A DNA stretch of 44,427 bases, from positions 1-44,427 of the forward strand of contig JBJTIE010000049.1 of assembly GCA_046094845.1 (NCBI GenBank), written 5' to 3'. The notes beneath the pieces are model-generated. The model was not told the origin of the DNA, made no database searches, and worked only from the letters and a program-made list of their open reading frames with translations. The stretch is from Planctomycetaceae bacterium (GTDB taxonomy: Bacteria; Planctomycetota; Planctomycetia; Pirellulales; UBA1268). A program made the translations under genes and the position numbers. This document shows positions 1,602 through 44,427 of this stretch, piece after piece (position 1 is the first letter of the stretch; the number at the start of each line of letters is the position of its first letter).

Positions 1602-1971
1602 CGCCGGGAATACCACGATTTCGCCTGGCTGGGGGCATGTTTGCGAGGGATTTTTCAGTTTTTCCCAGCCTCCGTGCCCCCGGTGCTTGACGCCCCCAGG
1701 GAGGCAACCTACTCTACATGCAACGTTGATGCAGAAGCTCCGGTGACGACGCCGGGCACCAGCGTTGTGATCTAGGAACTGCTCGTGACCGCGTCTTGAT
1801 CCCGGTGCGGAGCGGCCCGTAAGGGCACAGCTTCGGAGGCTGTTCGAGCCTCGTGGATCAATTCTTCACGCGTTCGCCATGTGTGGCTCTGGCAGGCGTT
1901 CAGCCTGCCGCCGTTTTCAAACGGTTGTGCCGCGTCCCGGCCCGCTGCGGATTTCCAGCCACCGCCCCCTC

Positions 1972-2000
1972 TTGACGCGCTCGCAGCCCAGCCTATAAAT
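1972..2000 (+). promoter_or_regulatory. Candidate sigma-70 promoter (TTGACG-N16/17-TATAAAT) abutting the DUF1559 gene start
   Basis: TTGACG at 1972-1977 and TATAAAT at 1994-2000. The ATG at 2007 lies 7 nt after the -10 element and no SD is visible, which implies a leaderless mRNA. Confidence 0.35.
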
Positions 2001-2006
2001 GCAATC

Positions 2007-2741
2007 ATGTTGCAAGTGACACCACGGTGCGAATCGTCGCCATGCGTTCGCACTCGAGCCTTCACGCTCGTGGAACTGCTCGTCGTGATCGCGATCATCG
2101 CCACCCTGATCGGCCTCCTGTTGCCCGCGGTGCAATCCGCCCGGGCTGCCGCCCGCCGCACCCAGTGCGCGAGCAACATGCGGCAGGTCGGCTTGGCGAT
2201 GTCGCAGTTTTCCGACACACACCGCGGACGTTTTCCAGACAATTCGCACACGAACGAGGCTGGTTCATGGATCTACACCATTGCGCCCTTCATGGAAGAT
2301 GTGGATGAAATCCGCATGTGCCCGGATGACAAGAAGCGATCGGAGCGGCTGGCCATGAAAATGACCAGTTATGTCCCGAATGCCTATCTCACCGACGAGC
2401 CCACCGGATATCCGACTCGCTACATCGTGACCAACCGCAACAAACTCCAGGAACCCTCCAAAACACTTGTGGCATTCGAGTTGTCGGACAGCAAAAACGT
2501 CACGTCCACCGACGATCATGTGCACAACCATACGTGGTTCACGCTGACGACAGTTGCTCGCAAGACTGTTTTTTCGGAGATCGAGGCAGACATGGCCGTT
2601 GACCGCCACAGTGACTCATCTCACGTGCTGCTTGCTGACTGGCGAGTGACCACCGTCGAGTCTTCACTTGTTCGTGATTGGGCTGCCGCCCAAAACCGCG
2701 ATAACAATTTCTGCGTGCCGAATCGCTTCGTACTTCGCTGA
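2007..2741 (+). CDS. DUF1559 / prepilin-type N-terminal cleavage-methylation domain protein (H-X9-DG family, variant C-terminus)
   Basis: [48 protein letters not shown] is the classic planctomycete DUF1559 N-terminus. Start moved to the internal ATG at 2007 (M43 of ORF 1881..2741). The C-terminal motif reads H-x9-DW ([12 protein letters not shown]) rather than H-x9-DG. Confidence 0.85.
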
Positions 2742-2780
2742 TCTTCTCACTAATCCTCCGACTGCTGGGAGAAACTCACC

Positions 2781-3668
2781 ATGCGAATGGGATTTTCGGT
2801 TCGCACACTTCTCATCGCGTACTGCACGTGCTCATTCTTCGACGGCCATGCGGCAATTGCGGAGGCGATTCATTACGACGTCCTCTTTACAAGCGGCTCT
2901 GGAACGCTCCTCACCGGTGGCTATGACGATGCGGGCAACAATGGAATTGCGCCGCTTCGCGTGTTTTCTGGCGAAGTCGTTGGCGCTGGCACGGCTGGAC
3001 CGTATGAGTCCGCCGAAGAACCCGGCTTTCGAGCACCCAATCAGGCCTTTCTGAATTCCTCGGCGATGACGCCTTCCGGCGTTTTCACTGCATTGCCCGG
3101 AAATACGGATCTTTTTTTTAATCTCGTCCCCATGACGATCAACGGGAGTAGCAGAAACCTTTTTTTCTGGAATGGTTCTGGGCCTGTGAACTTCGCGGCA
3201 TTGCCAGCCAGCTATCAACTCGGTCTTGTCGGTGACTTTGGAACGGCGGCCATCACTGGATCTACGAGTGAGGTTACGGCGAACTTTCTCCTGAAAAAAA
3301 CATCGGCTGATGGAAGTTTGGATCCTGGGCATCCTCACTTGACCACGCAAATTGCAGACGCCGGAGACGCCCCTGCCCAGGGTTTTTATTTGTTCGCGAT
3401 GCAGTTCAATATGGCCGGACTGTCTTCTTCCGCTCCGGCATACTTCGTGTACGGAGCGTATGACGCCAACTCGCCCCCTGACTTCGTGACGTTCGATGCC
3501 GCTCACGCCGAAGCGGAAGCATGGGTCGAAAACAACCTGGCCGCCGTCCCGGAGCCCTCGAGCCTCGCTCTTGCGGGACTGGGAGCGGCGGGCGTTCTGA
3601 CCGCCGGCTGGGGGCGCCGACGGCGGGCCGCGGCCCAGAATTCAGTGTTGGCCGACATTGCCCGTTAA
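2781..3668 (+). CDS. PEP-CTERM sorting-domain secreted protein
   Basis: N-terminal signal peptide (MRMGFSVRTLLIAYCTCSFFDGHAAIAEA). C-terminal VPEPSSLALAGLGAAGVLTAGWGRRRR matches PEP motif, TM helix and Arg cluster. Confidence 0.85.
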   Translation: MRMGFSVRTLLIAYCTCSFFDGHAAIAEAIHYDVLFTSGSGTLLTGGYDDAGNNGIAPLRVFSGEVVGAGTAGPYESAEEPGFRAPNQAFLNSSAMTPSGVFTALPGNTDLFFNLVPMTINGSSRNLFFWNGSGPVNFAALPASYQLGLVGDFGTAAITGSTSEVTANFLLKKTSADGSLDPGHPHLTTQIADAGDAPAQGFYLFAMQFNMAGLSSSAPAYFVYGAYDANSPPDFVTFDAAHAEAEAWVENNLAAVPEPSSLALAGLGAAGVLTAGWGRRRRAAAQNSVLADIAR

Positions 3669-23005: not shown

Positions 23006-24022
23006 TTACGGCAGCACATAACGGCCCGTTTTACGGGTGCCCGTCCGGAGAATGACGCCAGCATCGAGGAGCGGCCGCAGAATGCCGCTGGCTGCCTGCT
23101 TTGAAACACCGAGCCGTGCCCACATCTCGGCAGGCGCCATGCCGCCATGATCGCGAAGCAGTCGGAGCACTTGCTCCTGCCGTGGGGTCAGCATGAGTGG
23201 TGGACCGGCCGCACGACGATCCACCGCCTGAATTCGGGACCACACCCGCTCCAGCGTCACGAGCAGTCCTTCGGCGCAGTATTCGAGCCACGCCGTGAGG
23301 TCCTCGCCGCGCTCCCGCACGTCCATGAGCATTCGGTAGTATCGCTCCCGATCTTCCCAAAAAAACTCATCGACTGAAAACACGTGATGCGAGTCGAAGC
23401 CACGGCGGTAGAGTTCCCACAGCGAGAGAGCCCGCCCGGTTCGTCCATTGCCATCGGCGAACGGGTGGATCGCCTCGAACCGATAGTGAATGATCGCCGA
23501 CGAGAGCACGGGCGAAACGACTTCTGCTTTGTCGTTCCACCAGGAAAGGAGCTCGAACATCAGACCCGAAACATCGCTCGGTGGTGGTGGCACGAACGAG
23601 CCGACACGGACGGCGATCGTGCGATATCGTCCGGCCACTCCCTGCTCCATGACTCCGTCGGCGAGGATACGGTGCAGTTCAAGGATGTCGTCATGACGAA
23701 GCCTGTCGCGTGCCGGCTGCCGCTCGATGTGCCGCAGCCCAGCGAGACAATTCTCGATCTCGCGCCGCTCGCGATTTGAAGCCGCAAGCGGGGAGCCACC
23801 GGCCTCGATCGCGCGGACCTGTTCGAGCGACAGCGAGTTGCCCTCGATGGCCGTCGATGCGTAGGCATTACGGGAGCGGGAATCGCGTTGAATTGCGTGC
23901 ATCCACGGCACCGCCACCGCCGCCTGTGCAATCCGCTCTCGGGTGGAAGCGATCGACTCGACATACCCGAGAAGGGTGGTCGTGATCGTGAACTGTGGGG
24001 AATACGCCATGCCATAAGTCAA
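23006..24022 (-). CDS. Fic/Fido-domain protein with N-terminal inhibitory motif and C-terminal winged-helix domain
   Basis: Canonical HPFADGNGRTGR Fic motif. (S/T)xxxE(G/N) inhibitory motif STAIEGN near the N-terminus. C-terminal LTPRQEQVLRLL...wHTH-like segment. Confidence 0.9.
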   Translation of the reverse strand: MTYGMAYSPQFTITTTLLGYVESIASTRERIAQAAVAVPWMHAIQRDSRSRNAYASTAIEGNSLSLEQVRAIEAGGSPLAASNRERREIENCLAGLRHIERQPARDRLRHDDILELHRILADGVMEQGVAGRYRTIAVRVGSFVPPPPSDVSGLMFELLSWWNDKAEVVSPVLSSAIIHYRFEAIHPFADGNGRTGRALSLWELYRRGFDSHHVFSVDEFFWEDRERYYRMLMDVRERGEDLTAWLEYCAEGLLVTLERVWSRIQAVDRRAAGPPLMLTPRQEQVLRLLRDHGGMAPAEMWARLGVSKQAASGILRPLLDAGVILRTGTRKTGRYVLP

Positions 24023-24063
24023 GCATGGGTCAATCCGTTGGTCAACCTGCTGGTCAAGCCGGC

Positions 24064-25551
24064 CTACGTGTCGTCGGCGGGGAGGCGGCTGGTTTCGACG
24101 GTCGGCGTCGGACCCGTGCAGGCCTTCATGAACTCGACGAGGTCGGCCTTCTCCTGCGGTGTCAGCTTGAGCGGCTTGATCTTGTCGCTCAGGTGCGGGT
24201 TGGGGTGGCCCCCCTTGTCATACCACTCGACGACTTCCTCGAGCGTCGCCACCGATCCGTCGTGCATGTAGGGAGCCGTGAGGGCGACGTTGCGAACCGT
24301 CGGCGTCTTGAAGGCGCCGGTGTCCTTCTCGTCCTTCGTGACCACCGACCGGCCGAGGTCAGGGTTCTCCTTGTCCATGCCGATGCCGAGGTTGTGGTAC
24401 TTCTCATCGGCGAGGTTGGCCCCGACATGGCAGGCGGTGCAGTTGCCTTTCTCGCTGAAGAAGATGTCGCGGCCCCGCTGGGCCGACTCGCTCATCGGAT
24501 GTGCCGCAGCGGCCTCCTTCGCAGTCGCATACTTGGCGGCCAACTCCGGATCGTCGGCGATGTCCTCCTCGTCGAGGCCGGAGAAGGCTCGCAGCTGCTC
24601 GCCGTAATCGTAGGGGGACGGGGCCGTGACGAGCACCCGCTCGAAGGCGGCGATCGCCTGGCCGACGCGGTCGATCGTGAGTTCCCCGAAGATCTTCTCG
24701 AACTGCTGCTTGTAGACGGGCATCTCGCCGAGCCGCTTCACGACGCCCTCGTGGGTGAAGCCCATCTCAATCGGATTGGCGATCGGCCCCACTGCCTGGG
24801 CCTCGAGCGAGTCGGCGCGGCCGTCCCAGAACTGCGGCCCGGAGAGGATGCGGTTGAACGAGACCGGTGAGTTGCGGCCCCCCTTTTGGCCGCGGATGCC
24901 CACGCCGGTCGTCGTGTGGGCGGTGTAGCCCTCGGCCGGGTTATGGCAGCTGGCGCAACTGACGGTGGAGTCGGCCGAGAGCCGGGGGTCGAAATAGAGC
25001 TGGCGGCCGAGCTCAATCTTGGCCCGCGTGAGCGGATTCGCGTCGAGCCCCGTGATCTGGGCTGCGCCCTGCGAAAGGCCGAGCGGCAGCACCGGCTCCA
25101 GTTCCACGAAGTTCCTCGGATCGTCGAGCCAGGCCTCGATCTCGGGGAGCGTGATCGGGCCGCCAGCCCCCTTCGCGGGCACGCCCGCCGTGAGCGACGG
25201 GTCACTGAGTTGCACCTTTTCAAGCGCGGCGGCGATCTTCTCCGGCTCGGCCGGCGGTTCCTTGCGCTCCAGCGACTCGGCCGCCTCGGCGATCCGCTTG
25301 TCGGCGTCGGCAATCGCCTCCTTCGTCTCCTCGACCGCCTTCCGCACGGCCGCCGCCGTCTCGGCCACGGCTGGGATGGCCGGCTTCGGCTCGTCGGTGG
25401 AGATCACTTCGATCGTCTCCACCACGTTGCCCGCAGGCGCTCCGCCCGGACCAGCCGGCGCACACCCCACGCACGCGGCCGCGAGAGCGGTTGCGAGCAG
25501 TGAGATCGGACGTCCCCAGACGGCAGCACGACGATCGGCGACAACGGACAT
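24064..25551 (-). CDS. Di-haem cytochrome c peroxidase (CcpA/MauG family), lipoprotein-type signal
   Basis: Two haem sites, CASCHNP and CTACHVG. N-terminal LLATALAAACVGC lipobox-like signal and a ~170-aa linker. Start set at ATG 25551. Confidence 0.88.
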   Translation of the reverse strand: MSVVADRRAAVWGRPISLLATALAAACVGCAPAGPGGAPAGNVVETIEVISTDEPKPAIPAVAETAAAVRKAVEETKEAIADADKRIAEAAESLERKEPPAEPEKIAAALEKVQLSDPSLTAGVPAKGAGGPITLPEIEAWLDDPRNFVELEPVLPLGLSQGAAQITGLDANPLTRAKIELGRQLYFDPRLSADSTVSCASCHNPAEGYTAHTTTGVGIRGQKGGRNSPVSFNRILSGPQFWDGRADSLEAQAVGPIANPIEMGFTHEGVVKRLGEMPVYKQQFEKIFGELTIDRVGQAIAAFERVLVTAPSPYDYGEQLRAFSGLDEEDIADDPELAAKYATAKEAAAAHPMSESAQRGRDIFFSEKGNCTACHVGANLADEKYHNLGIGMDKENPDLGRSVVTKDEKDTGAFKTPTVRNVALTAPYMHDGSVATLEEVVEWYDKGGHPNPHLSDKIKPLKLTPQEKADLVEFMKACTGPTPTVETSRLPADDT

Positions 25552-34185: not shown

Positions 34186-34761
34186 TCAGCGGTGGGGCGG
34201 GTGCAGCCGCCGCCATTCCGCGGGCTCGGTCGGGTGCGAATCCGCCCAGAGACCGAGCCGGCCGCGGCGGGCGGTCTCCTCGGCGGCCACGAGATCCTCG
34301 TCGGGCGCGAAGCCGCCGAAGACCCAGGCCGCCCCCTCCGCGACGAGTTCACGGTTCAGGTTGCGCTCGTCGAGCCAGAGCGTGCCGAGCAGCCGTCCGT
34401 GCTGGTCGATCGCATCGCCCTCCACCCGCACCGGCCGGTTGGCCAGCTTCGCCCGCAGGAGCTGCCGCGACCAGTCGCCGAAGGGCTGGCCGAACTCGGG
34501 CGCGTCGATCCCCTGCAGGCGGATCTTGTGCGACCGTCCCTCCGGATCGATGCAGGTGACGGTGTCGCCGTCGTGCACCGCATCGACCCGCCAGACCGGC
34601 CGGCCGGCCGAGTCGTGCACCGGGCACATCGGCACGACGATGCTCGCCACCAGTGAGATCAGCGCGGCGGCCACCGCATACCAGGGCCGCAGCCGCTTCG
34701 GCAGGCCACGGGGGGGCGGCGGCAGCCGGAAGGGCTTCCGGCCCCGGAAGGGACTAGCCAA
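34186..34761 (-). CDS. Membrane-anchored staphylococcal-nuclease (SNase/thermonuclease) family protein
   Basis: VHDGDTVTCID...IRLQGIDAPEFGQPFG...LLGTLWLD...NRELVAEGAAWVF are SNase blocks. An N-terminal TM helix (WYAVAAALISLVASIVV) is present. The proposed TTG start at 34761 overlaps the stop of the upstream ORF. Confidence 0.78.
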   Translation of the reverse strand: MASPFRGRKPFRLPPPPRGLPKRLRPWYAVAAALISLVASIVVPMCPVHDSAGRPVWRVDAVHDGDTVTCIDPEGRSHKIRLQGIDAPEFGQPFGDWSRQLLRAKLANRPVRVEGDAIDQHGRLLGTLWLDERNLNRELVAEGAAWVFGGFAPDEDLVAAEETARRGRLGLWADSHPTEPAEWRRLHPPHR

Positions 34762-35041
34762 GTTCGTCGTCGTCGCTCGTGGCGTCACGCTCGTCGGCGT
34801 AGGGGTCGCGGATGCAGGCCGTCTCGGCGCACACATCCTCCCCGTCATCGAGGTCGCAGACAAGCGAGAGCAGGGCGTTCTTCTCCGACTCGGAGATTTC
34901 GGCGAGGCGGAAGCTGCGGATGATCTCCGGCACCGGGTCGATGGTGGGATCGCAGATCTCCACGCTCACCCGGCCGGTCATGATCCGCCCCCGCCGATCG
35001 GCGAACCGCTCGCAGAGCACCAGCAAGTTTTCGCGATCCAT
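34754..35041 (-). CDS. Small acidic Cys-containing protein of unknown function
   Basis: 95 aa with strong GC3 bias, a very acidic C-terminus (DLDDGEDVCAETACIRDPYADERDATSDDDELG) and 5 Cys. It overlaps the nuclease start by 8 nt. Confidence 0.55.
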   Translation of the reverse strand: MDRENLLVLCERFADRRGRIMTGRVSVEICDPTIDPVPEIIRSFRLAEISESEKNALLSLVCDLDDGEDVCAETACIRDPYADERDATSDDDELG

Positions 35042-35140: not shown

Positions 35141-36184
35141 ATGTACGGATCGTGTGAGAAAACGGTTCGAAAACCGGCGTTCTTCGCGTGCTTTCGGCGC
35201 AGCGGGCGGCGGGGGCGGCGGCCTATCCTCGCCCGACTCGAGGAACCTTCCGTGAGCCGACCGATCGATCGACAGACCGAGGCCCGCCGCATCCTGGCCG
35301 GCCAGCGGCCGCGCCGGCCGTCACCCCGAACGATCCTGCGGGCGACGGCCGTGGCCTGCGGAGTCGGGCATCTCGTCGGGATTGGAAACAAGCTGCCCGG
35401 CATCGTCGTCGTCGGTGCGATGCGGGCCGGCACGACGTCACTTTTCAGCCTGCTCGCCGCGCACCCGCAGGTGGCGGCCGCATTCCACAAGGAAGTGCAT
35501 TACTTCGACCTGCGGTTCCATCTCGGGACGAACTGGTACCGGCACCAATTCAGGCGGCCTCGCACGGCCGTCCGCAGGCGGGCCATCGGCCTCGAATCGA
35601 GTCCCTACTACCTGTTCGACCCTCGCGTGCCGGCCCGCATGGCGGCGATCATGCCCGACGTGAAGCTCGTCTTTCTCCTGCGGGATCCGGTGGAACGCGC
35701 CTTCTCCCACTATCGCAAGAACCTGCGCGACGGCCGCGAGCCGCTCTCGTTCGCCGAGGCGCTGGCCGCCGAGGACGAGCGGCTCGCCGGCGAGGAGGAA
35801 CGCATGCTGCACGACCCCGGCTACGTGAGCCGTCTCCATCAGTACTACTCATATGCCGCCCGCGGCCGGTATGCCGAGCAGCTGATCCGGTGGCGGCGGC
35901 ACTTCCCCGTTCCGCAGATGCTCGTGGTCGATGCGGCCAGGCTGTTCGCCTCACCTGGCGCGGTGTTGGCCCAACTGTTCGCCTTCGCCGAGCTGGAGCC
36001 GTGGGTTCCACGACAGTTCGTGTCGCTCAATGCCGGGCAGGTCGGGATGCCGCTCGATCCGGACACCGCCTCCGGATTGGCGGCGCGGTTCGCCCCGCAC
36101 GAGCGGCAGCTCGCCGCACTCATCGGCTGGTGCCCATCGAAGACCTGCCAGGCAACGGCGGTCGTGCGGGCGGAGGCGGCATGA
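35141..36184 (+). CDS. Sulfotransferase-domain protein (ST1)
   Basis: 5'-PSB-like loop VVVGAMRAGTTSLFSLL and 3'-PB-like FLLRDPVERAFSHYRKN. The start is uncertain (ATG 35141 or GTG 35252). The upstream part of the 674-aa ORF is antisense run-on. Confidence 0.75.
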   Translation: MYGSCEKTVRKPAFFACFRRSGRRGRRPILARLEEPSVSRPIDRQTEARRILAGQRPRRPSPRTILRATAVACGVGHLVGIGNKLPGIVVVGAMRAGTTSLFSLLAAHPQVAAAFHKEVHYFDLRFHLGTNWYRHQFRRPRTAVRRRAIGLESSPYYLFDPRVPARMAAIMPDVKLVFLLRDPVERAFSHYRKNLRDGREPLSFAEALAAEDERLAGEEERMLHDPGYVSRLHQYYSYAARGRYAEQLIRWRRHFPVPQMLVVDAARLFASPGAVLAQLFAFAELEPWVPRQFVSLNAGQVGMPLDPDTASGLAARFAPHERQLAALIGWCPSKTCQATAVVRAEAA

Positions 36185-36236
36185 CTCTCTCGCGGCATCG
36201 TCAGACCCCGAAACCCGTGACCGGAGGGGCGTAAGG

Positions 36237-37001
36237 ATGTGGGTGTTTTGTGGTGGCATGTTTCGGTCAGGCTCGACGGTGCAGTATCAGATCACCAGTC
36301 ATCTGGTCGAGCATCACGGCCGCGGCAGCCGCGTCAGCTGGCACTCGCCGCACGAGTTCGACGCGGTGCGGCTGGCGCATGCCGACACGCCCGGCCTGAT
36401 CGTCTTCAAGGCCCATGGACTGACGGCCGCGATGCGTGAGGAACTCGACCGCGGCGGCGGGCACGTGATCACGGTGCACCGCGACATTCGCGACGTGGTG
36501 GTGTCGGCGCTCCGCAAGAACGGGTGGTCGTTTCGGCACGTCTGGAAGCATGGTTACCTGCGCCGGTGGACGCAGCGGTTCGAGGAATGGGCGGCGATTC
36601 CCGGCGCCCTGGTCTCCCGGTACGAACACCTTGTGGAGGGGCTTGAACACGAGGTGAGCCGGATCGCCGGCCTGCTCGGGCTTCCGGCGGACGACACCCT
36701 GGCGACCGCCGTCGCCGTGGACTACGCGATCGACAGGCAGCGTGAACGCACGGCAGACATCTGCGGGAAGCAGTCTCGTGGCGCGCTCACGAAGTTCGAC
36801 CCCCATTCATTGCTCCACTTCAATCATGTCGCCTCCGGGGAGGTGGGCATCTTCCGGCACATGCTCGCCCCTGCCGAAATCCGCGCGATCGAAGACGCCT
36901 GCGGGGAGTGGCTCGATCGCTGGGGCTACCCGCGATCCGACATCACGTTGTCCGCGGCCGACCGGCTGCGACGCTGGAGCCTGGGGCGTGCCGCCGCATG
37001 A
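36237..37001 (+). CDS. Sulfotransferase-like protein (ST2)
   Basis: N-terminal VFCGGMFRSGSTVQYQI (PAPS 5'-phosphosulfate loop-like) and ITVHRDIRDVVVSALRK (3'-phosphate motif-like). ATG 36237 follows the ST1 stop by 52 nt. Confidence 0.7.
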   Translation: MWVFCGGMFRSGSTVQYQITSHLVEHHGRGSRVSWHSPHEFDAVRLAHADTPGLIVFKAHGLTAAMREELDRGGGHVITVHRDIRDVVVSALRKNGWSFRHVWKHGYLRRWTQRFEEWAAIPGALVSRYEHLVEGLEHEVSRIAGLLGLPADDTLATAVAVDYAIDRQRERTADICGKQSRGALTKFDPHSLLHFNHVASGEVGIFRHMLAPAEIRAIEDACGEWLDRWGYPRSDITLSAADRLRRWSLGRAAA

Positions 37002-37795
37002 CACCCGACATCCCGGCCATCGTGCTCACGTGCCAGAAGTACGTGCCGCTCGCGGAGCACATGATCGATCGCTACGCCGCGGTCTGGCCGGACCATCCCT
37101 TCGTGTTTCGGCTGCCCGACGGGTCGGCCGCCCGCGAGATGGCCCTGCGGCACCCGGACCGCGTGACGCTCGTGCCCACGGCCGAGGGGGAGGGGCGGGG
37201 GCGGTTTCGGGCCGCGGTGCTGGGCCTCCTCGATGGCCTCGCCGACGACGCCTGGATCTATTGGTGCATCGACGACAAGTACGTGACGTGGCTCGATCGG
37301 CGGGCGGCCGACGGCGTCGTGCAGGCGGTGCGGAGCGTGACCGATCCAGGGATCGGCGGACTCTGCTTCGCCCGGGCCCGAAAGCTCTTCGATCCGGCTC
37401 ACATCTCGACCGAGCATCTGCGGATCGGCCGGCAGACGTTCCTCCGACGGCTTTCCTATGCCCAGATCTGGCTCCATCAGTTCCTGCGGGTCCGGGTGCT
37501 GCGAGATCTCTTCACGGGCTTCCCCGAGGTGATCGAGTCGGCGAAGGAGATGGACGCGCTGCACCTGGCGCGAACGCTGCCCGCCGACCAGCGGCTCTAC
37601 GTGCTCGACCACAACGCCGTGGTGTTCGGCGAGAGCACGAGCCGTGGCGTGCTCACGGCCAACTGTGCCGCCAGCCTCCGCCGCGGCCGGGGACTGCCCG
37701 CCGGATCTCCCGTGGGGACGAAACGGCTCGTGGTCGGCCGCAAGCCGGCCCTGATGCACCGCATCGCTCGGGCACTCGGCGGCCTCCGTGCCTGA
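36998..37795 (+). CDS. Hypothetical protein, possible GT-A-like transferase (CIDDKY acidic motif)
   Basis: The ATG overlaps the ST2 stop (ATGA). GC3-rich. No motif was recognised beyond IVLTCQKY...WIYWCIDDKY. Confidence 0.5.
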   Translation: MTPDIPAIVLTCQKYVPLAEHMIDRYAAVWPDHPFVFRLPDGSAAREMALRHPDRVTLVPTAEGEGRGRFRAAVLGLLDGLADDAWIYWCIDDKYVTWLDRRAADGVVQAVRSVTDPGIGGLCFARARKLFDPAHISTEHLRIGRQTFLRRLSYAQIWLHQFLRVRVLRDLFTGFPEVIESAKEMDALHLARTLPADQRLYVLDHNAVVFGESTSRGVLTANCAASLRRGRGLPAGSPVGTKRLVVGRKPALMHRIARALGGLRA

Positions 37796-37800
37796 AGCGA

Positions 37801-38529
37801 TCAGGTCCGCAGCCGGTCGAGCCGCTCCGCGATCGCCTCCGGGCTCGCTCCGCCCCAGAGTCGGTGCCATGCCCTCGCCAGCCGATATCCCAGCGAATGC
37901 GCGGCCCGGCTGCGGCGCATCCGGGGATCACGGCGGTCGACCAGCGGGCAGCCCACGAACCGCTCCAGTCGCGCAAGCTCGGCCGGGTCGGTCATCAGCT
38001 TCGCGTAGTCGATCACGATGAAGGGCTGCGTCGTGCGGTCGAGCGCGGCGAGGATGGCCGCGTTGGATTCGCACCACCGTGCGAGGCAGTGGCGGAAGAC
38101 GGTCAGCCGGCGGCGGCCCGCCGTCGCAGCCCGGTAGTGGGCCCAGGCCTCCTCCGGCCGGCGGAACACGGCGACGATTCGGTGTGCCGGCAGTTCCCCG
38201 GCCCACAGGTCGTAGGTGAGGCAGGTGCGCGGATCCTTGAATCCCCAGTCCGGATGCCGAGCCGAGCAGGCCACGATCACCCCCCGCATCCGCGCCCGTT
38301 CGGCCTCACCGAATCGTCGGACGCGGCCGGATGTCTCGAGGCTGAAGGCGTTGGCCGAGCCGAGGATCGCGTGGTTCACCTGCTTGGTCGAGTCACGTTC
38401 CCACTTGTTGCCGGCGTCGTATCCCGCGGCGGCATCGGCGGCCTCCACCATGTCGATGCCGGCATGGTGGAGCAGCTCCGACACGAGCGTGGTGCCGGAT
38501 TTGTGCATGCCGAGCACGACGTGAATCAT
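37801..38529 (-). CDS. Sulfotransferase-domain protein (ST3)
   Basis: Canonical PAPS loop VVLGMHKSGTTLVSELL at the N-terminus and IVAVFRRPEEAWAHY as a 3'-PB-like motif. An alternative start lies at 38544. Confidence 0.75.
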   Translation of the reverse strand: MIHVVLGMHKSGTTLVSELLHHAGIDMVEAADAAAGYDAGNKWERDSTKQVNHAILGSANAFSLETSGRVRRFGEAERARMRGVIVACSARHPDWGFKDPRTCLTYDLWAGELPAHRIVAVFRRPEEAWAHYRAATAGRRRLTVFRHCLARWCESNAAILAALDRTTQPFIVIDYAKLMTDPAELARLERFVGCPLVDRRDPRMRRSRAAHSLGYRLARAWHRLWGGASPEAIAERLDRLRT

Positions 38530-38775
38530 CGTCGGTGGCTCCATGGCAGGCCCCAGCCGCTGGAGCCGACCTGGTTCCGGTTGGGGCGCATGACTTTCCA
38601 GGCACGCAGGAAAATGGGGCAACCGGCGAGAGATACCAAAACTCGGGTGGGGAGGGCGAGATCAGTTGCCGGGGCGAAGGAAACGAGGCGGGCAAACCGG
38701 AATTGCCCCCGATGCCGTCCGGCGGTAGCGTCCGTCTGCTTCACCCCGACCCCCCGGCGCGCCAGCACTCGTCCC

Positions 38776-39894
38776 GTGACTCCGCCCACCCAAACATCCG
38801 TCGCCGGCCGCCCATTCGACGTGATCACGGTGCCGGATTTCTCCGGCAAGGACGACACCGTGTTCGAGGCCCGCACGCTCGTGTTCCTGTCGAGCTGGCT
38901 GGAGAACGCGGCCGTGAGCCGGTCGTTCCCGCTGCACCTGGCCTGCATCGGCGCGCCGCCACCGAGCGTCCGCCGGCTCGCCGCCCGCTGCGACGCCAGG
39001 ATCACGATCCACGAGCCGCTCCGGCTCCGTCACGACCATCATGTCGGCAACAAGTTTCGGGGGCTCGAAATCGAGCCGGAGACCGACCGCTTCCTGCTCC
39101 TCGACGTGGATACCGCAATTCTCTCCGACCTCGCGCCGCTCGCCGCCTTCGGCGACTGCCTGGCAGCCTGCCCCGACGACGCGCCGAACGTGGCCCGCAA
39201 GGACTGGGAGACGATCTACGCCACCTTCGGTCTCCCGCTCCCGCCCCCGATCCCGCCGCTCGTGTGCGAGCTCGATCTGCCACGGCACCCGCGGCGGATG
39301 ATGGGCTTCGAGGCCGGCGACGACCAGGTCGAGTCGATGCTCCCCTACTACAACGGCGGCGTCGTCTTCGCGCCGTGGGCCTGCGGCCTCCGGGAGCGGT
39401 GGCAGGAGAACATCCTGCGGATCGCCTCCCTTTACGACGAGCGGCACGAGACCCGCAAGTGGATTCATCACAGCGATCAGGCCGCACTGGCCGTCACGAT
39501 CCAGATGCTCGCGGCGGAGGGCTGGGCGTTCCGGCGGCTGCCCGACGCGTTCAACGCCCGTTGGCAGCACCTCTATGCCGGCCGACCCGACCACCGCGAT
39601 ATCGCGGTGATGCACTGCTGCTGGAACTTTCTTTCGGCGATCGAACAGGTGCCGGTGACGGCCGACACGATCGGCGCGGCACTCGAGCGGTTCTTTCTGC
39701 GCAAGGTGAAGCACCGATTCCAGCGGCTCGTGTTCGGTGACCTCCTCCGGCTGCGGCCTCGGCAGGCGTGGCGGAGGTACCACGGCGGAATGGCCCGGGC
39801 CGAGACGCTCTGTCGGCAGCTCGAGCAGTTGTGTCGCGGGCATCTCGCGCGAGCCGCGGCCGAATGCGACCCGTCGGTCGGAGCCGCCGCCTGA
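38776..39894 (+). CDS. GT8-like (GT-A fold, DxD) glycosyltransferase
   Basis: FLLLDVDTAIL (DxD), YYNGGVVFAP, HHSDQAALAV (GT8 DQD-like block). It is the C-terminal part of the artefactual 1050-aa ORF. A GTG start at 38776 was chosen because 38600-38775 looks non-coding. Confidence 0.65.
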   Translation: MTPPTQTSVAGRPFDVITVPDFSGKDDTVFEARTLVFLSSWLENAAVSRSFPLHLACIGAPPPSVRRLAARCDARITIHEPLRLRHDHHVGNKFRGLEIEPETDRFLLLDVDTAILSDLAPLAAFGDCLAACPDDAPNVARKDWETIYATFGLPLPPPIPPLVCELDLPRHPRRMMGFEAGDDQVESMLPYYNGGVVFAPWACGLRERWQENILRIASLYDERHETRKWIHHSDQAALAVTIQMLAAEGWAFRRLPDAFNARWQHLYAGRPDHRDIAVMHCCWNFLSAIEQVPVTADTIGAALERFFLRKVKHRFQRLVFGDLLRLRPRQAWRRYHGGMARAETLCRQLEQLCRGHLARAAAECDPSVGAAA

Positions 39895-39901
39895 CGGTGG
39901 C

Positions 39902-41023
39902 TCATGCCCGCGGTCTGCGGGCGGTGGCGACGACGGCGCGGTAGGTCTCGACGTATCGCATCGCGACCTGGTGCCAGTCGTGACCGGCAAGGGACTGGGG
40001 GGCGGCGGCCCGCAGCCGGCGGGTGACCGCGGGCTCGTCGAGCAGCCGCTGGATCGCCGCCGCGATCGCCGTGGGTGACTCCGGCCGGCAGAGCAGGCCG
40101 TTGACCTCCGACGTCACCAGTTCGGGGTTGCCCCCGACGTCGGTGGCCACGACGGGCAGCCCGGAGGCCAGGGCCTCGAGGATCACGTTGGCGAACGGCT
40201 CGCGACGCGAGGGACAGACGAAGAGCTCCGCCGACCGATACAGGCTCACCTTGCGGTCGCCCGTGACGGGGCCGAGCAGCCGCACGCGGTCACGAAGCCC
40301 CAGCCGCTCGACCTGGGCCTCGAGCGCGGCCGACTCGCCGCCATCGCCGGCAATCAAGAGATCGACGGCTGGATCGCGGAGCCGGGCGTAGGCGTCGATG
40401 AGCAGGTCGAACCCCTTGTGCCGCACGAGGCTGCCGAGGCCGAGGAGGTAGCGGCGGGGATGGGGAAAGGGCTCGGCCGTGGCAAAGGCCGTGACATCGA
40501 CCCCGTTGTTGATCGTTACGATCCGGTCAGCAGCGACGCCGAGGCCATGAATCACGTCGCGGAGGGCATCGCCTTGGGCGATGATGGCGTCGGCGGCGGT
40601 CAGCGCCCGGGTCATCCGGTGCGCCAGCCGCGGCGTCCGGCGGATCGCCTCGTCGGGCAGCACGTCGGCCCCGTGCGGCCGCACCACGTAGGGAACCCCG
40701 GTCAGTTGCCGGAGCGTCGTGGCCACGTAGGCCTGCGGATAGGCGGCATGGCAGTGCACGACGTCGAAATGGTGGCGGGCATGCAGGGCCAGGAGCCGGG
40801 GCAGAATCGCACGCACCCCGAACCGCTTCGACCACTGCCGGCGGTGCCGGACGACGGGATAGCCGAACTGCCGGTCGTCGAACGGCTCCCGGGCCGGCGG
40901 CGCGACGACGACGGGCCGGTGGCCGAGCCGCACGAGTTGCCGGCAGAGCTGATCGAGCACGGTCTGCGCACCACCGAGCGTGGGCAGACAGACGTCGGTA
41001 TGGAGGCAGATCGAGAGCGACAT
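39902..41023 (-). CDS. Glycosyltransferase family 4 (GT-B)
   Basis: N-terminal PTLGGAQTVLDQLCRQLVRLGH and C-terminal E-x7-E motif (REPFANVILEALASGLPVVATDVGGNPE). Start set at ATG 41023. Confidence 0.88.
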   Translation of the reverse strand: MSLSICLHTDVCLPTLGGAQTVLDQLCRQLVRLGHRPVVVAPPAREPFDDRQFGYPVVRHRRQWSKRFGVRAILPRLLALHARHHFDVVHCHAAYPQAYVATTLRQLTGVPYVVRPHGADVLPDEAIRRTPRLAHRMTRALTAADAIIAQGDALRDVIHGLGVAADRIVTINNGVDVTAFATAEPFPHPRRYLLGLGSLVRHKGFDLLIDAYARLRDPAVDLLIAGDGGESAALEAQVERLGLRDRVRLLGPVTGDRKVSLYRSAELFVCPSRREPFANVILEALASGLPVVATDVGGNPELVTSEVNGLLCRPESPTAIAAAIQRLLDEPAVTRRLRAAAPQSLAGHDWHQVAMRYVETYRAVVATARRPRA

Positions 41024-41045
41024 GGGCTTCAACACTTTGCACCCA

Positions 41046-41232
41046 GTAGGTGCAGACTGGCAGTCTGCACCATACCGCATTGCGCAGATTACCAATGTGC
41101 GGCTACGGGTTTGGAAGCCAGTCACCCTGTAGGTGCAGATTGGTAATCTGCACACGGTGGCCGACCGCAGATGACCAATGTGCGGCTACGGGGCTGGATG
41201 CCTGTTTGTAGGTGCAGATTGGTAATCTGCAC
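41046..41232. repeat. Cluster of family B REP-like elements (three GTAG-GTGCAGAYTGGYARTCTGCAC hairpins alternating with two CAGATKACCAATGTGCGGCTACGG units)
   Basis: GTAG heads at 41046, 41129 and 41208, with 9-bp stem hairpins at 41050-41070, 41133-41153 and 41212-41232. The ~77-bp period fills the divergent GT4/epimerase intergenic region. Confidence 0.65.
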
Positions 41233-41286
41233 ACCGTCGCCTACGCTGTGGCGTCGCGATCATGGCATCGACATGGAGGCGTTGTG

Positions 41287-42243
41287 GTGAAGCGGATACT
41301 GGTCACCGGGGCGGCGGGGTTCATCGGTTCGCACGTGGCGGAGGCGCTGCTCGAGCGGGGCGACGAGGTGGTCGGCCTCGATGAACTCAACGACTATTAC
41401 CCCGTCGCCTACAAGCGTGAAAACCTCACCCTGCTCGGACGCCATCCGCGGTTCTCGTTCGTGGAAGGGGACATCTGCGACGAACGGCTCGTCTCCGAAC
41501 TCTTTGCCGCGTGGCGGTTCACACACCTCGCCCATCTCGCGGCGCGGGCCGGGGTGCGGCCGTCGATCGCCGATCCGTTTCTCTACCAGCGGGCGAACTG
41601 CGACGGCACGCTCACGCTGCTCTCGGCATGCGTCGAAGCGGGCCTCGAGAACGTGGTGATCGCCTCGTCGTCGTCGGTCTATGGCAACTCGCGGGCGATT
41701 CCATTCCGGGAGGACGACTCCGCCACCGACCGGCCGATCTCCCCCTATGCCGCCACGAAGAAGGCGACCGAGGTGATGGCCCACACGTTCCATCACCTGC
41801 ACGGGCTCGCGATCACCGTGATCCGTCCATTTACCGTCTACGGCCCGCGCGGCCGGCCCGACATGGCGCCGTGGCTGTTCGTGGAATCGGCCCTGGCCGG
41901 CCGGCCGATCCGGAAGTTCGGCGACGGCACGACCCGCCGCGACTACACCTACATCGGCGACTTCGCCCGCGGGTTCGTCAACGCGATCGACCGGCCGCTG
42001 GGCTACGAGATCGTGAATCTCGGCAACTCGGCCACCGTCTCGCTCAACGAGGCACTCGACGTGGTGCGAGAGGTGACCGGAAGGGAACTCATGATCGAGC
42101 AGGCGCCGCCTCAGCCGGGCGACGTGGAGATCACCAACGCCGACATCTCGAAGGCCAGCCGGCTGCTCGACTACGACCCGGCGACGTCGTTCAGCGAGGG
42201 GATGGCCCGATTCTGCGACTGGTATCGCGGCTGCCGGCTCTGA
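41287..42243 (+). CDS. NAD-dependent nucleotide-sugar 4-epimerase (UDP-glucuronate 4-epimerase-like, extended SDR)
   Basis: ILVTGAAGFIGSH Rossmann motif and YAATKKATE (YxxxK). DYYPVAYKRENL and RRDYTYIGD blocks are typical of the GlcA/GalA epimerase subgroup. GTG 41284/41287 follows GGAGG. Confidence 0.88.
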   Translation: MKRILVTGAAGFIGSHVAEALLERGDEVVGLDELNDYYPVAYKRENLTLLGRHPRFSFVEGDICDERLVSELFAAWRFTHLAHLAARAGVRPSIADPFLYQRANCDGTLTLLSACVEAGLENVVIASSSSVYGNSRAIPFREDDSATDRPISPYAATKKATEVMAHTFHHLHGLAITVIRPFTVYGPRGRPDMAPWLFVESALAGRPIRKFGDGTTRRDYTYIGDFARGFVNAIDRPLGYEIVNLGNSATVSLNEALDVVREVTGRELMIEQAPPQPGDVEITNADISKASRLLDYDPATSFSEGMARFCDWYRGCRL

Positions 42244-42467
42244 AGGCGGCAACGAAGAAAGTGGGCGATATAGGGTCAGAACAAACTACCCCTTCGTCGG
42301 GAAAACAGCATATCGCGAGCCAGTGCGACGCGAAATGCGACGCGATTCCGGCCGATCGCGTTGATTTGCTCGCCCGCGCTGTGCTCCTCGTGGCGGGCGT
42401 GGCTATTCCTGAGGCATCGCGGGAGGCTGTTCTCCAACGTGTGATCGAGGAACTGGAGCAGGGCTGA

Positions 42468-42488
42468 GAAAGCGGGCCGCCCGCTTCC
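42468..42488. terminator. Weak hairpin between convergent ORFs
   Basis: GAAAGCGGG-CCG-CCCGCTTCC gives a 7-8 bp stem. There is no U-tract. Confidence 0.2.
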
Positions 42489-42518
42489 CGCGACGCCAAC
42501 CAACGGCCTGCGCCGCCG

Positions 42519-42908
42519 TCACGCCGCCTCTCGAATGACGTCCAGGTACGCCCGCCAGACCCGCGAGTAGGCGCAGCCCCAAGCCTCGTCATGGCAGGCC
42601 CGCTCGAAGGCCACGGGGTCGGTATCGGGGGCGTTGATGAGCCTGTCGACGGCGAAGTTCCAGGCCAGTGCATGCGCCCATTCGTGGCAGAGCACCTCGA
42701 CGGCCTGCGGCTCGCCCATGTCGTCGTTGAGAAGGACCACGAACCGCTTATCGCGTCGAAGGCACTGGCCCAGAACGGTTTTGGGGAGCCAGGAAGCCCG
42801 AACGACGACGGGGAGGGCTGGAGGGCATTCCCGTCGAAGGCCCGTCAAAACCGTCTGAAATTCTCGCCAGCCAGAGCGGTTCACGAAACTGCGGCGTGGG
42901 GCAGACAT
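42519..42908 (-). CDS. Small HExxH zinc-metallopeptidase-like protein (SprT/ImmA-like)
   Basis: VEVLCHEWAHALAW contains HExxH and is preceded by the beta-strand-like FVVLLNDD. The start is ambiguous (ATG 42908 or 42995). Confidence 0.5.
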   Translation of the reverse strand: MSAPRRSFVNRSGWREFQTVLTGLRRECPPALPVVVRASWLPKTVLGQCLRRDKRFVVLLNDDMGEPQAVEVLCHEWAHALAWNFAVDRLINAPDTDPVAFERACHDEAWGCAYSRVWRAYLDVIREAA

Positions 42909-43041
42909 CGACGCAGCGTGGGCGTGGCCGGTGTTGGACAAGGATCCGCGATGACAGCAGAGAACGGGCACGGTGGCGGCGCGGTTGTGCTTCATCCGTG
43001 CAGTGTAGCGCCGACGACACTCGCGCGCTACCTTGGAGCAT

Positions 43042-43752
43042 ATGGACACACAGCAACCACCAGCGCGAAACACCGACGCCAACATCCGCAAGGCCGCCGA
43101 GGCGATTGCAGAGGTGTTGGAGATGAAGCAGGAGTTCATTCGCTGCCACGATTCCCTTGCCAACAGGACGTACCGGCTCGTGGAACTCCTCGGTCAGGCG
43201 GAATCGCGGGGGTACCTCCTCGAAGACTCCCTGACGCTCGTGGACACGGTGTATTGGCTGCAGATGATCGACTGGCAGACCAAGTTCTTGTCGATGGTCC
43301 TGAACTTCACGAAGGACCCCAGCCGCAAGACGCTCCGGCCACTGATCGAACTCTACGGCCGTGACCGGGAGCGCATGAAGGTCGAGGTGGAGATCCTTGA
43401 ACGCCAACTGAAGCACCGGCTGGCCATGTTTGCACAGCCCGACGACGCCACGGTTAAGAAGGCCATCACGAAGAACGAGCAGCGCGTGTTGGCCGTCTAC
43501 TTGCACGTCCGCTCGGGCTATCGCGGTATTGATGTAGCCCGGTTCTTCAAGGTGCCCAAGACGACTGCCTACGGGTGGCTCGATTGGTTCAAGATGCTGC
43601 CAGAGGGACTGCAGGCGGGGATTCTGGCGTTCATGGATACACAGGCGCCGATCATGGCCGCGTGTCAGTTGCCCGCGGTCATGCCCAAGCCCATCGCGAA
43701 TTCGGCGGCTTCGGTGGGCGGAAAGCACACCGCGGCAGCACAGCCGGCGTGA
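43042..43752 (+). CDS. Hypothetical protein with C-terminal HTH (sigma-70 region-4/LuxR-like)
   Basis: ITKNEQRVLAVYLHVRSGYRGIDVARFFKVPKTTAYGWL resembles a region-4 type HTH. GGAG lies 4 nt before ATG 43042. GC is lower than in the flanking sequence. Confidence 0.5.
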   Translation: MDTQQPPARNTDANIRKAAEAIAEVLEMKQEFIRCHDSLANRTYRLVELLGQAESRGYLLEDSLTLVDTVYWLQMIDWQTKFLSMVLNFTKDPSRKTLRPLIELYGRDRERMKVEVEILERQLKHRLAMFAQPDDATVKKAITKNEQRVLAVYLHVRSGYRGIDVARFFKVPKTTAYGWLDWFKMLPEGLQAGILAFMDTQAPIMAACQLPAVMPKPIANSAASVGGKHTAAAQPA

Positions 43753-44079
43753 TCAGGGTCTGCAGAGGGTGGGTACGAGTGCGGCCGCCTGCGATTTGCC
43801 GCCCCACGAGAGGTCCGATGTTTTGGGTACATGCTTTTCGGGTGGGGCGTTCTGCAACACCCATCGTCACGCGCGCCATTCAGTGGGATTTCCTGTGTCG
43901 CCGCCCGAATCCATGCCGCGATAGGGCCTGCGACGCGCTAAAATGAGAGGCGTCAGGCAACGAGAACCGCAACGAAACGACAAGGTTTTGGATGGTCTCG
44001 AACATCTGAATCTTCAAAAAGTACGGATTTCCGCCGAGGCGAATGTGCCCCAACAGCCAGCGCATCAAGGAGGATGCCC

Positions 44080-44427
44080 ATGACCAAGCCCCACTCGTTC
44101 GACGACCCCGCAGGCCGCCAACTGCTCGCGGCCATCGGCAAGATCCGGCGCATGACGTCCGGCGACCCGAAATACCACTCCGGACGTAAGAAGAAGGAGT
44201 ACGCGTCGCCCTACTTGGAGTTCTTAGCCAAGATCGAAACCAACGCCCGCCGCATGCCACAGCCCTACGAATTCGACCCCGGGCACGCCGACGGGATCAG
44301 GCACGCGGACCTGGACGCGGGAGAGCAGGTCCTGAGGGAGATGATCTACGAGTGCGAGCGGAGCCTTGAGGGCATCGAGCACGCGAGGCTGGACTTGGAC
44401 GCGCGGGGGTGGGCGAGGGGGATGGTG
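44080..44427 (+). CDS. Hypothetical protein (3' partial, runs off the window)
   Basis: ATG 44080 is preceded by AAGGAGGA. I read 116 codons with no stop up to the window end (MTKPHSFDDPAGRQLLAAIGKIRR...). It is absent from the ORF track, presumably because it has no stop codon. Confidence 0.45.
   Translation, partial: MTKPHSFDDPAGRQLLAAIGKIRRMTSGDPKYHSGRKKKEYASPYLEFLAKIETNARRMPQPYEFDPGHADGIRHADLDAGEQVLREMIYECERSLEGIEHARLDLDARGWARGMV

Follow-up and report, generated by a model that had tools for sequence, protein, structure and literature searches.

Sulfated glycans are central in animals and algae and are documented in few bacteria, and Planctomycetota are known as consumers of such glycans through their many sulfatases. 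The closest described systems to the locus studied here, a seven-gene cassette at 35.2-42.2 kb of a 44,427-nucleotide stretch from a Planctomycetaceae bacterium (contig JBJTIE010000049.1, assembly GCA_046094845.1; the whole stretch is called the window), are gene clusters for sulfated polysaccharides. The xss cluster of Synechocystis sp. PCC 6803 directs the synthesis of synechan, a sulfated exopolysaccharide (EPS) (PMC8205485). Like the present cassette it brings together several glycosyltransferases and two or more sulfotransferases that differ in subfamily, and sulfation is presumed to take place in the cytoplasm on a lipid-linked unit; the present cassette also occurs in a cyanobacterium, Synechococcus sp. 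GFB01. The xss cluster is located on a megaplasmid and has Wzx, Wzy, a polysaccharide co-polymerase and regulators, whereas the present cassette is without polymerisation and export genes, holds three sulfotransferases per three putative glycosyltransferases and includes two protein families without Pfam models, here named X and Y. The sulfated capsular polysaccharide (CPS) loci of marine Vibrio sp. KMM 8419 (PMC11641403) and Cobetia marina KMM 1449 (PMC11766843) likewise carry glycosyltransferases and several sulfotransferases; their sulfated polysaccharide is structurally proven. The Vibrio locus comprises 80 genes including cysDNC for synthesis of 3'-phosphoadenosine 5'-phosphosulfate (PAPS) and ABC transport, whereas the present cassette, from freshwater Planctomycetota, occupies 7 kb without these. 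A putative sulfated-glycan cluster was also described in Pontiella (PMC7356697), and metagenomic surveys noted sulfotransferase genes in some Planctomycetes metagenome-assembled genomes (MAGs; PMC9723792). A sequence-only reading made earlier on this DNA had called bacterial carbohydrate sulfation rare; that statement has to be softened because sulfated CPS and EPS clusters are described in Synechocystis, Vibrio, Cobetia and Pontiella (PMC8205485, PMC11641403, PMC11766843, PMC7356697).

A second group of related systems acts on lipid-anchored glycoconjugates. LpsS of Sinorhizobium meliloti is a lipopolysaccharide (LPS) sulfotransferase and a precedent for LPS sulfation (PMC12445080). LpsS, rhizobial NodH and mycobacterial Stf0 use PAPS to sulfate a lipid-anchored glycoconjugate from the cytoplasmic side, as is proposed here for the cassette. 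Each of them is a single gene, from the Stf0 or another subfamily, whose product modifies a pre-existing glycan, whereas the present cassette packages three sulfotransferase subtypes with its own putative glycosyltransferases and a probable UDP-uronate epimerase.

On balance we think that the cassette builds and O-sulfates a short oligosaccharide containing galacturonic acid (GalA) on a lipid-linked surface glycan, with the core of LPS or a lipooligosaccharide (LOS) as the favoured acceptor; this is held with fair rather than strong confidence. It is built on domain identities, conserved motifs, synteny and the linkage and fusion of X with sulfotransferases, all of which were observed. What appears to be new at the sequence level is a compact, transporter-free cassette with three mechanistically distinct sulfotransferases for three glycosyltransferase-like proteins, two GT-A families that look unclassified, the general linkage and fusion of X with sulfotransferases and with FkbM methyltransferases, and the sharing of the cassette by Planctomycetota and a picocyanobacterium. 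The seven genes are tightly packed in alternating orientation and form five apparent transcription units, with successive gaps from ST1 to the epimerase of 52, -4, 5, 246, 7 and 260 nt. The features are as follows.

35252..36184, plus strand: ST1, PAPS-type sulfotransferase, similar to heparan sulfate (HS) 3-O-/N-sulfotransferases, 310 aa, GTG start
36237..37001, plus strand: ST2, PAPS-type sulfotransferase, similar to cytosolic SULT and StaL, 254 aa
36998..37795, plus strand: X, GT-A-fold protein, putative glycosyltransferase of an unclassified family, 265 aa
37801..38529, minus strand: ST3, PAPS-type sulfotransferase, Sulfotransfer_3 type, 242 aa
38530..38775, no strand: divergent intergenic region between ST3 and Y, a variable slot, empty here
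38776..39894, plus strand: Y, GT8/GT24-like retaining GT-A glycosyltransferase of an unclassified family, 372 aa
39902..41023, minus strand: GT4-family retaining GT-B glycosyltransferase, 373 aa
41024..41283, no strand: divergent intergenic region between GT4 and epimerase, with three palindrome copies
41284..42243, plus strand: extended short-chain dehydrogenase/reductase (SDR) nucleotide-sugar 4-epimerase, 319 aa

The sequence-only reading had described seven packed genes with a set of characteristic motifs, and all of these motifs were recovered in the translations, with gaps from -4 to 260 nt. They are GAMRAGTTSL and RDPVERAFSHY in ST1, GMFRSGSTVQY and RDIRDVVVSAL in ST2, GMHKSGTTLV and RRPEEAWAHY in ST3, LLLDVDTAIL, YYNGGVVF and SDQAAL in Y, CIDDKY in X and the E-x7-E of the GT4. 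It had started ST1 at an ATG at 35141; this remains an alternative, and the GTG at 35252 is probably the true start since it is so called in 97%-identical contigs. ST2 and X overlap by ATGA and are translationally coupled. None of the seven cassette proteins was predicted to have a transmembrane segment.

Sulfotransferases were assigned by hidden Markov model scores over the curated Pfam gathering cut-offs (PF00685 Sulfotransfer_1 and PF13469 Sulfotransfer_3), and the 5'-phosphosulfate-binding (5'-PSB) loop was defined as G-x-x-[KR]-x-G-[ST]-[ST] near the N-terminus. All three genes proposed as sulfotransferases in the sequence-only reading scored above the cut-offs. ST1 matched Sulfotransfer_3 (E 6.4e-15; 56.4 bits, cut-off 27) and Sulfotransfer_1 (4.8e-9; 36.4 bits, cut-off 22), ST2 matched Sulfotransfer_1 (5.8e-7; 29.6 bits, cut-off 22) and Sulfotransfer_3 (6.4e-7; 30.3 bits, cut-off 27), and ST3 matched Sulfotransfer_3 (1.9e-12; 48.3 bits, cut-off 27) over profile positions 3-214 of 216. 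The phosphosulfate loops GAMRAGTT (ST1), GMFRSGST (ST2) and GMHKSGTT (ST3) were kept in 13-41 orthologues. Comparison with hhalign among the shallow orthologue alignments of ST1, ST2 and ST3 gave no meaningful alignment; the three are too divergent, and their motifs were therefore compared with Pfam and PDB relatives. Judged from these profiles and motifs, ST1, ST2 and ST3 are three different sulfotransferase subtypes. The catalytic base of sulfotransferases is a Glu in the HS enzymes and a His in the SULTs; of the three proteins, ST1 and ST2 could be assigned a base by alignment.

A phmmer search placed human HS3ST3A1 closest to ST1 among PDB sequences (4.4e-25), followed by HS3ST1, HS3ST5 and the sulfotransferase domain of NDST1. 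The alignment of ST1 and HS3ST3A1 over about 205 residues keeps the 5'-PSB loop (mRaGTt), the E-x-H-x-x-D stretch (kEvHyfD) and the RDPVxRAxS 3'-phosphate-binding (3'-PB) motif; the Glu and His of ST1 align with the E-P-H stretch of HS3ST3A1, and the E-x-H-x-x-D stretch corresponds to the catalytic Glu site of that enzyme. These motifs were kept in 15 orthologues. ST1 is clearly related to the human HS 3-O-sulfotransferases and shares with the animal 3-O-sulfotransferases and NDST the 5'-PSB, the catalytic Glu, the His and Asp of E-x-H-x-x-D and the RDP...S of the 3'-PB; unlike the animal enzymes it is bacterial and soluble, without a Golgi stem or transmembrane segment, and no heparosan synthase or C5-epimerase gene is located nearby.

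Nearly all of the 94 homologues in the ST2 family match PF00685 or PF13469, and the family profile matches retinol dehydratase, SULT4A1, SULT1C2, StaL and Teg12/14 with E values of 1e-11 to 1e-3. Residues S13/T14, K58-x-H60, R82 and S90 are invariant; K58-x-H60 aligns with the K-T-H catalytic motif of the SULTs, RDxRDVxVS aligns with RDPRDVAVS, and a G-x-x-G-x-W-R stretch falls on the C-terminal SULT motif. At the 3'-phosphate site, RDPVERAFS in ST1 and RDIRDVVVS in ST2, the Arg and Ser are invariant and aligned to those of HS3ST and SULT. In ST3 the stretches GMHKSGTT, WGFKDPRT and R123-x-P125 were kept in 13 orthologues. The PAPS-binding residues looked for by the sequence-only reading were found in all three loops and, as the Arg and Ser, in ST1 and ST2.

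The product of 39902..41023 belongs unambiguously to GT4 by its profile matches, as had been read from the sequence before (Glycos_transf_1 8.3e-42, Glyco_transf_4 1.5e-27), and its E-x7-E motif reads EPFANVILE. Its best PDB relatives were BshA, a GT1-family protein, a sucrose-phosphate-synthase-like protein, MshA and PimA. The identification of an extended-SDR epimerase also stood: the protein matches Pfam Epimerase (2e-57) and has GAAGFIG (GxxGxxG) and Y-A-A-T-K (YxxxK). Its best PDB relatives were 5u4q (3e-78), 6zl6 (1e-53) and MoeE5 6kv9 (2e-50), all ahead of the GalE structures. Entry 5u4q is deposited as dTDP-glucose 4,6-dehydratase; 6zl6, which we take to be the UDP-glucuronic acid (UDP-GlcA) 4-epimerase of Bacillus cereus, and 6kv9, presumably also a UDP-GlcA 4-epimerase, carry PDB names that do not say so. 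The epimerase probably converts UDP-GlcA to UDP-GalA, as these relatives suggest. Neither the GT4 nor the epimerase matched an NCBIfam equivalog at cut-off.

Protein Y had no match in Pfam (E <= 0.1), NCBIfam or PDB sequences, and its 87 homologues are all annotated 'hypothetical'. An AlphaFold2 model computed from a 47-sequence alignment had a mean predicted local distance difference test (pLDDT) value of 91.8. The top 50 Foldseek matches of this model in the PDB, nearly all to retaining GT-A enzymes of GT8/GT24 type, comprised UGGT (GT24), XXYLT1, glycogenin, LgtC, LARGE1, GlyE, 6mw5 (Skp1 alpha-galactosyltransferase) and WbbM, with E values of 2e-8 to 5e-6 and target-normalised template modelling (TM) scores of 0.5-0.6 for single-domain targets. 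D110-x-D112 and H280 are invariant, N193/G195 and D234 are nearly invariant, and the motifs YYNGG (FNxG-like) and SDQA (DQ-like) are conserved; these motifs were equated with those of LgtC and glycogenin by inspection. Y shares with LgtC, glycogenin, XXYLT1 and UGGT the fold, the DxD, the C-terminal His and the FNxG-like and DQ-like motifs, and differs from GT8 and GT24 in giving no PF01501 match, in lacking the KPW part of the GT8 C-terminal motif and in an additional C-terminal helical hairpin at residues 296-364 of the model. The 'GT8-like' DxD enzyme of the sequence-only reading is upheld in its fold and motifs but not by the Pfam GT8 model; as modelled, it holds that Y is GT8/GT24-like by fold and motifs and not a member by the Pfam model. 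One homologue (P0136) is a fusion of Y with an FkbM methyltransferase, and another adjoins a Polysacc_synt_3 flippase gene and an ST1-like gene.

Protein X likewise gave no match in Pfam, NCBIfam or PDB sequences. Its AlphaFold2 model (pLDDT 95.6) matched IspD, GnT-I (GT13), KdsB, SpsA and POMGNT1 in the PDB by Foldseek (E 2e-6 to 1e-4, TM 0.32-0.48); there were 41 PDB matches at E <= 1e-3, and those listed were all GT-A glycosyltransferases or nucleotidyltransferases of the same fold. As far as the model goes, X has the GT-A / nucleotide-diphospho-sugar transferase fold. The motif W-C-x-D-D-K-Y and the residues H160 and E212 are invariant; the motif ends a beta strand, with the invariant D92-D93 following strand 86-91, where GT-A enzymes carry their DxD; by inspection the N-terminus has no GxGxR nucleotidyltransferase loop. 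We infer from this that X is a glycosyltransferase, and go no further, because the TM scores are low and cytidylyltransferases match about equally well. The sequence-only reading had counted two glycosyltransferases; with the GT-A fold of X, three glycosyltransferase-like proteins are counted here. A profile-profile comparison of X with Y gave no relation between them.

An exhaustive profile search found 487 representative proteins of the X family (418 at E <= 1e-10), for which there is no Pfam model, in Planctomycetota, Verrucomicrobiota, Bacteroidota, Cyanobacteria, Proteobacteria and others; a tblastn search of a plasmid collection found no homologue. The neighbourhoods of 63 distant homologues (33-47% identity) were scanned. 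Among the 117 directly flanking open reading frames (ORFs), 28 matched Sulfotransfer_2, 21 Sulfotransfer_1 and 19 Sulfotransfer_3, and a sulfotransferase gene was located immediately beside X in at least 34 of the 63 loci. X is fused to a sulfotransferase in P0217, P0231 and P0282 and to an FkbM methyltransferase in P0288, P0260, P0323 and P0286. Because of this adjacency and these fusions, X would, by strong guilt-by-association, act on the same substrate as the O-sulfo- and O-methyl-transferases, and the linkage gives a concrete, testable function to a family of 'hypothetical proteins'. Genes for GT2, GT4 and Polysacc_synt_2 were found near the distant X loci, and the homologue P0046 has as neighbours a Wzy-like gene, an ABC-2 transporter, three sulfotransferase genes, an FkbM methyltransferase gene and the exosortase gene EpsH.

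Two further observations concern the distant X loci. In MAGs of Verrucomicrobiota (Udaeobacter/Chthoniobacterales) X is sandwiched by two Sulfotransfer_2 genes (the loci concerned include L059-L062, L072, L073, L081 and L082), and formylglycine-type sulfatases with SGSH_C made up 12 of the 105 ORFs located 1.3-5 kb from distant X homologues. Many of the distant X loci are interrelated, so that counts over them are not independent.

The order ST1-ST2-X-ST3-Y-GT4-epimerase was unchanged in 97%-identical freshwater metagenome contigs. The gene set, partly rearranged, was present at 50-87% identity in MAGs of Pirellulales, Planctomycetaceae and Phycisphaerales, and Synechococcus sp. GFB01 carries the cassette at about 50% identity with its order unchanged. 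The expectation of the sequence-only reading that the genes stay together in relatives was borne out by this synteny. About 20 independent loci carry this gene set, at identities as low as about 50%, and its clustering is, on this comparative evidence, not due to chance. The flanks differ among lineages, with KAS and staphylococcal nuclease (SNase) genes and the threonyl-tRNA synthetase (ThrRS) gene in close relatives and RND pump, P-type ATPase, ABC and kinase genes in other lineages. The best reading of these comparisons is that the cassette behaves as a self-contained, horizontally mobile unit. In relatives the membrane or export genes beside the cassette were only unrelated transporters (RND, P-type ATPase, generic ABC).

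That the seven genes lie side by side but serve no shared product, with the sulfotransferases acting for example on proteins (tyrosine sulfation) or unrelated substrates and the glycosyltransferases belonging to a separate pathway, would agree with the five apparent transcription units in alternating orientation and with the general knowledge that Sulfotransfer_3 also includes protein tyrosine sulfotransferases. We regard this as very improbable: the set persists through rearrangements, 50% sequence divergence and a phylum boundary, X is fused with sulfotransferases in other genomes, and ST2 and X are translationally coupled.

The gene content of the cassette was variable in a few places. The slot between ST3 and Y holds a fourth sulfotransferase gene in L006, L007, L008 and L018, a GT25 gene in L010, L012, L017, L019, L020 and L087 (with weaker matches of 37-38% in L013 and L014) and other ORFs in L009. 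Neither ST1 nor ST2 is present in L006 or L009, and all that L008 has of the two is a fragment of ST1; X, ST3, Y, GT4 and the epimerase are still there in these three loci. L007 has four sulfotransferases. These differences suggest that the sulfation pattern varies at strain level. In some lineages additional GT4, GT8 and polysialyltransferase-like genes are attached, and the copy in Synechococcus sp. GFB01 adjoins Wzy_C (O-antigen ligase family) and PMT_2 (ArnT-like) genes. Such gene-content variability is typical of surface-antigen loci.

Several taxonomic labels of the MAGs among these relatives look unreliable. The label 'Candidatus Kuenenia' is implausible for the contig of L009, which has 69% GC and is syntenic with Pirellulales, and is also attached to L007; 'Chitinophagaceae' and 'Bordetella parapertussis' labels are implausible as well (the doubtful loci are L007, L009, L015/L022 and L024). 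Mistakes in binning or labelling are the probable cause.

The closest solved relatives of ST2 and of the GT4 act on small molecules, and for this reason a small-molecule product was kept as an alternative: a soluble or lipid compound made in the cytoplasm, such as a sulfated glycolipid, a compatible solute or a natural-product-like glycoside. The nearest solved relatives of ST2 are SULTs and the glycopeptide-antibiotic sulfotransferases StaL and Teg, those of the GT4 (BshA, MshA, sucrose-phosphate-synthase-like) make small-molecule glycosides, all seven proteins are soluble with no transport or polymerisation gene attached, and the cassette moves as a self-sufficient unit. Such a product is nevertheless improbable, as no gene for the biosynthesis of an aglycone is conserved with the cassette, and the hypervariable slot, the strain-level loss of ST1 and ST2 and the co-occurrence of GT25, GT8, Wzy_C, PMT_2 and FkbM genes are the signature of a surface antigen.

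For the lipid-linked surface glycan, four steps are proposed. The epimerase would supply UDP-GalA from UDP-GlcA; GT4, Y and X would then extend a lipid-linked acceptor by a short oligosaccharide on the cytoplasmic side of the inner membrane; ST1 and ST2, with Glu and His respectively as catalytic base, and ST3 would O-sulfate up to three positions with PAPS as donor; and the product would be exported through machinery encoded elsewhere. X may make or present the sugar that is then capped by the sulfotransferases encoded beside it; in other genomes the capping may fall to FkbM methyltransferases. PAPS is cytoplasmic, and because none of the seven proteins has a membrane segment this cytoplasmic model is the most economical one. 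We slightly favour an acceptor of the LPS-core or LOS type, since GT4, GT8-like and GT25 enzymes are the classical outer-core toolkit, GalA is a common core sugar, Wzy_C and PMT_2 genes stand beside the cyanobacterial copy and LpsS is a precedent; another lipid-linked surface polysaccharide unit would be the alternative acceptor.

The chief alternative is a secreted polymer (EPS, capsule or O-antigen) made by a Wzx/Wzy or ABC pathway encoded elsewhere, whose repeat unit would be built or decorated by the cassette; the product would then be a sulfated EPS like synechan or the sulfated capsules of Vibrio and Cobetia. EPS and CPS clusters with several sulfotransferases are documented (PMC8205485, PMC11641403). 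The P0046 locus with its Wzy-like gene, ABC-2 transporter, three sulfotransferase genes, FkbM and exosortase EpsH, the Y homologue beside a Polysacc_synt_3 flippase and an ST1-like gene, the GT2, GT4 and Polysacc_synt_2 genes near distant X loci, and a PEP-CTERM protein in the window, which by inspection implies an exosortase system in the organism, all accord with this. Most copies of the cassette, however, are set among unrelated housekeeping genes, and none of the machinery of a complete Wzx/Wzy- or ABC-dependent locus, such as a polymerase or exporter, lies within 10 kb of them; the GT25 and GT8 additions are, from established knowledge of LOS and LPS cores, more typical of core oligosaccharides. 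We consider a secreted polymer unlikely, though deserving serious consideration.

Several results weigh against a lipid-linked surface glycan that carries a sulfated oligosaccharide. In the window there is no exporter or flippase, polymerase, priming enzyme, ligase or PAPS-synthesis gene (cysDN/cysC), nor does such a gene adjoin most copies of the cassette; the sequence-only reading had already noted that no flippase, polymerase or priming transferase is present, and none was found. In ST3, no 3'-PB serine was evident at the expected spacing in the 13-orthologue alignment, and its profile gave only a marginal match in the PDB (2z6v, E 0.035) with no clear solved relative. Y fails the Pfam model Glyco_transf_8 (PF01501), which was matched by 0 of its 87 homologues, and X resembles nucleotidyltransferases (IspD, KdsB) about as well as glycosyltransferases, with TM scores of only 0.3-0.5. 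The small-molecule substrates of the closest solved relatives of ST2 (SULTs, StaL, Teg) and GT4 (BshA, MshA) count on the same side. The sugar donors, the order of the steps, the acceptor and sulfation itself are inferred, and the neighbour genes behind the LPS-core preference occur in only a few loci.

If the reading of a sulfated surface oligosaccharide is true, Planctomycetota also make sulfated glycans, and the trait moves between phyla in lakes. A more specific and rather speculative proposal is that X represents a new glycosyltransferase family which forms 'add-and-cap' modules with O-sulfotransferases or FkbM O-methyltransferases and here takes part in making a multiply sulfated, GalA-containing LPS outer core or LOS. 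It would mean an anionic, heparan-like surface chemistry that is not described for Planctomycetota and that, by horizontal transfer, would also be present in a picocyanobacterium. The cassette is small enough for heterologous expression and offers candidate carbohydrate sulfotransferases, two unclassified GT-A families and a route to engineered sulfated oligosaccharides.

Analysis of the intergenic region between GT4 and the epimerase revealed three copies of a 21-nt palindrome, GTGCAGA-N7-TCTGCAC, at 41050-70, 41133-53 and 41212-32. The copies are spaced by 83 and 79 nt and lie in about 2.5 tandem units of about 80 nt, each of which also holds a second conserved block of 40 nt. By chance alone no copy of the palindrome would be expected, and the rest of the window has none. 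The copy closest to the epimerase, about 50 nt upstream of its start, was kept with a few substitutions in L001, L006, L007 and L008; the number of copies differs among relatives. The palindromes are a candidate operator array. Neither known RNAs nor riboswitches were found in the intergenic regions, and scans for sigma-70 promoters and terminators gave no informative signal. A reading of the locus as a defence system, prompted by a weak match to the Pfam model GT4-conflict, was dropped after 0 PADLOC matches.

Synteny with all close relatives stops 30-90 nt past the stop codon of the epimerase. The relatives continue with a 252-aa uncharacterised protein, a 503-aa FkbM methyltransferase and ThrRS, and the window continues from 42274 to 44427 with strain-specific DNA of lower GC (0.63). 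This DNA carries an HExxH ORF at 42519-43163 (minus strand) and a 239-aa ORF at 43033-43752 (plus strand), for which searches of Pfam and PADLOC gave no match, and no tRNA or tRNA integration site was found. The segment 42274-44427 is possibly an inserted mobile element.

The window as a whole is a stretch of a Planctomycetota chromosome with a GC content of about 0.69, and its other genes code for a BBP7 porin-like protein, a DUF1559-like pseudopilin, the PEP-CTERM protein, LpxD/LpxI, FtsH, Dxr, RseP and LepA. By inspection, the ORFs 23009-24217 (minus strand), 1800-2738 (plus strand) and 2754-3665 (plus strand) include a Fic-domain-like protein with a HPFADGNGRTGR motif and a planctomycete-type pseudopilin-like protein. 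On the other side of the cassette, a 95-aa acidic ORF without a Pfam match (34754-35041, minus strand) lies directly upstream of, and overlaps, the gene for a membrane-anchored staphylococcal-nuclease homologue (34186-34863, minus strand), and this pair was kept beside the cassette in close relatives.

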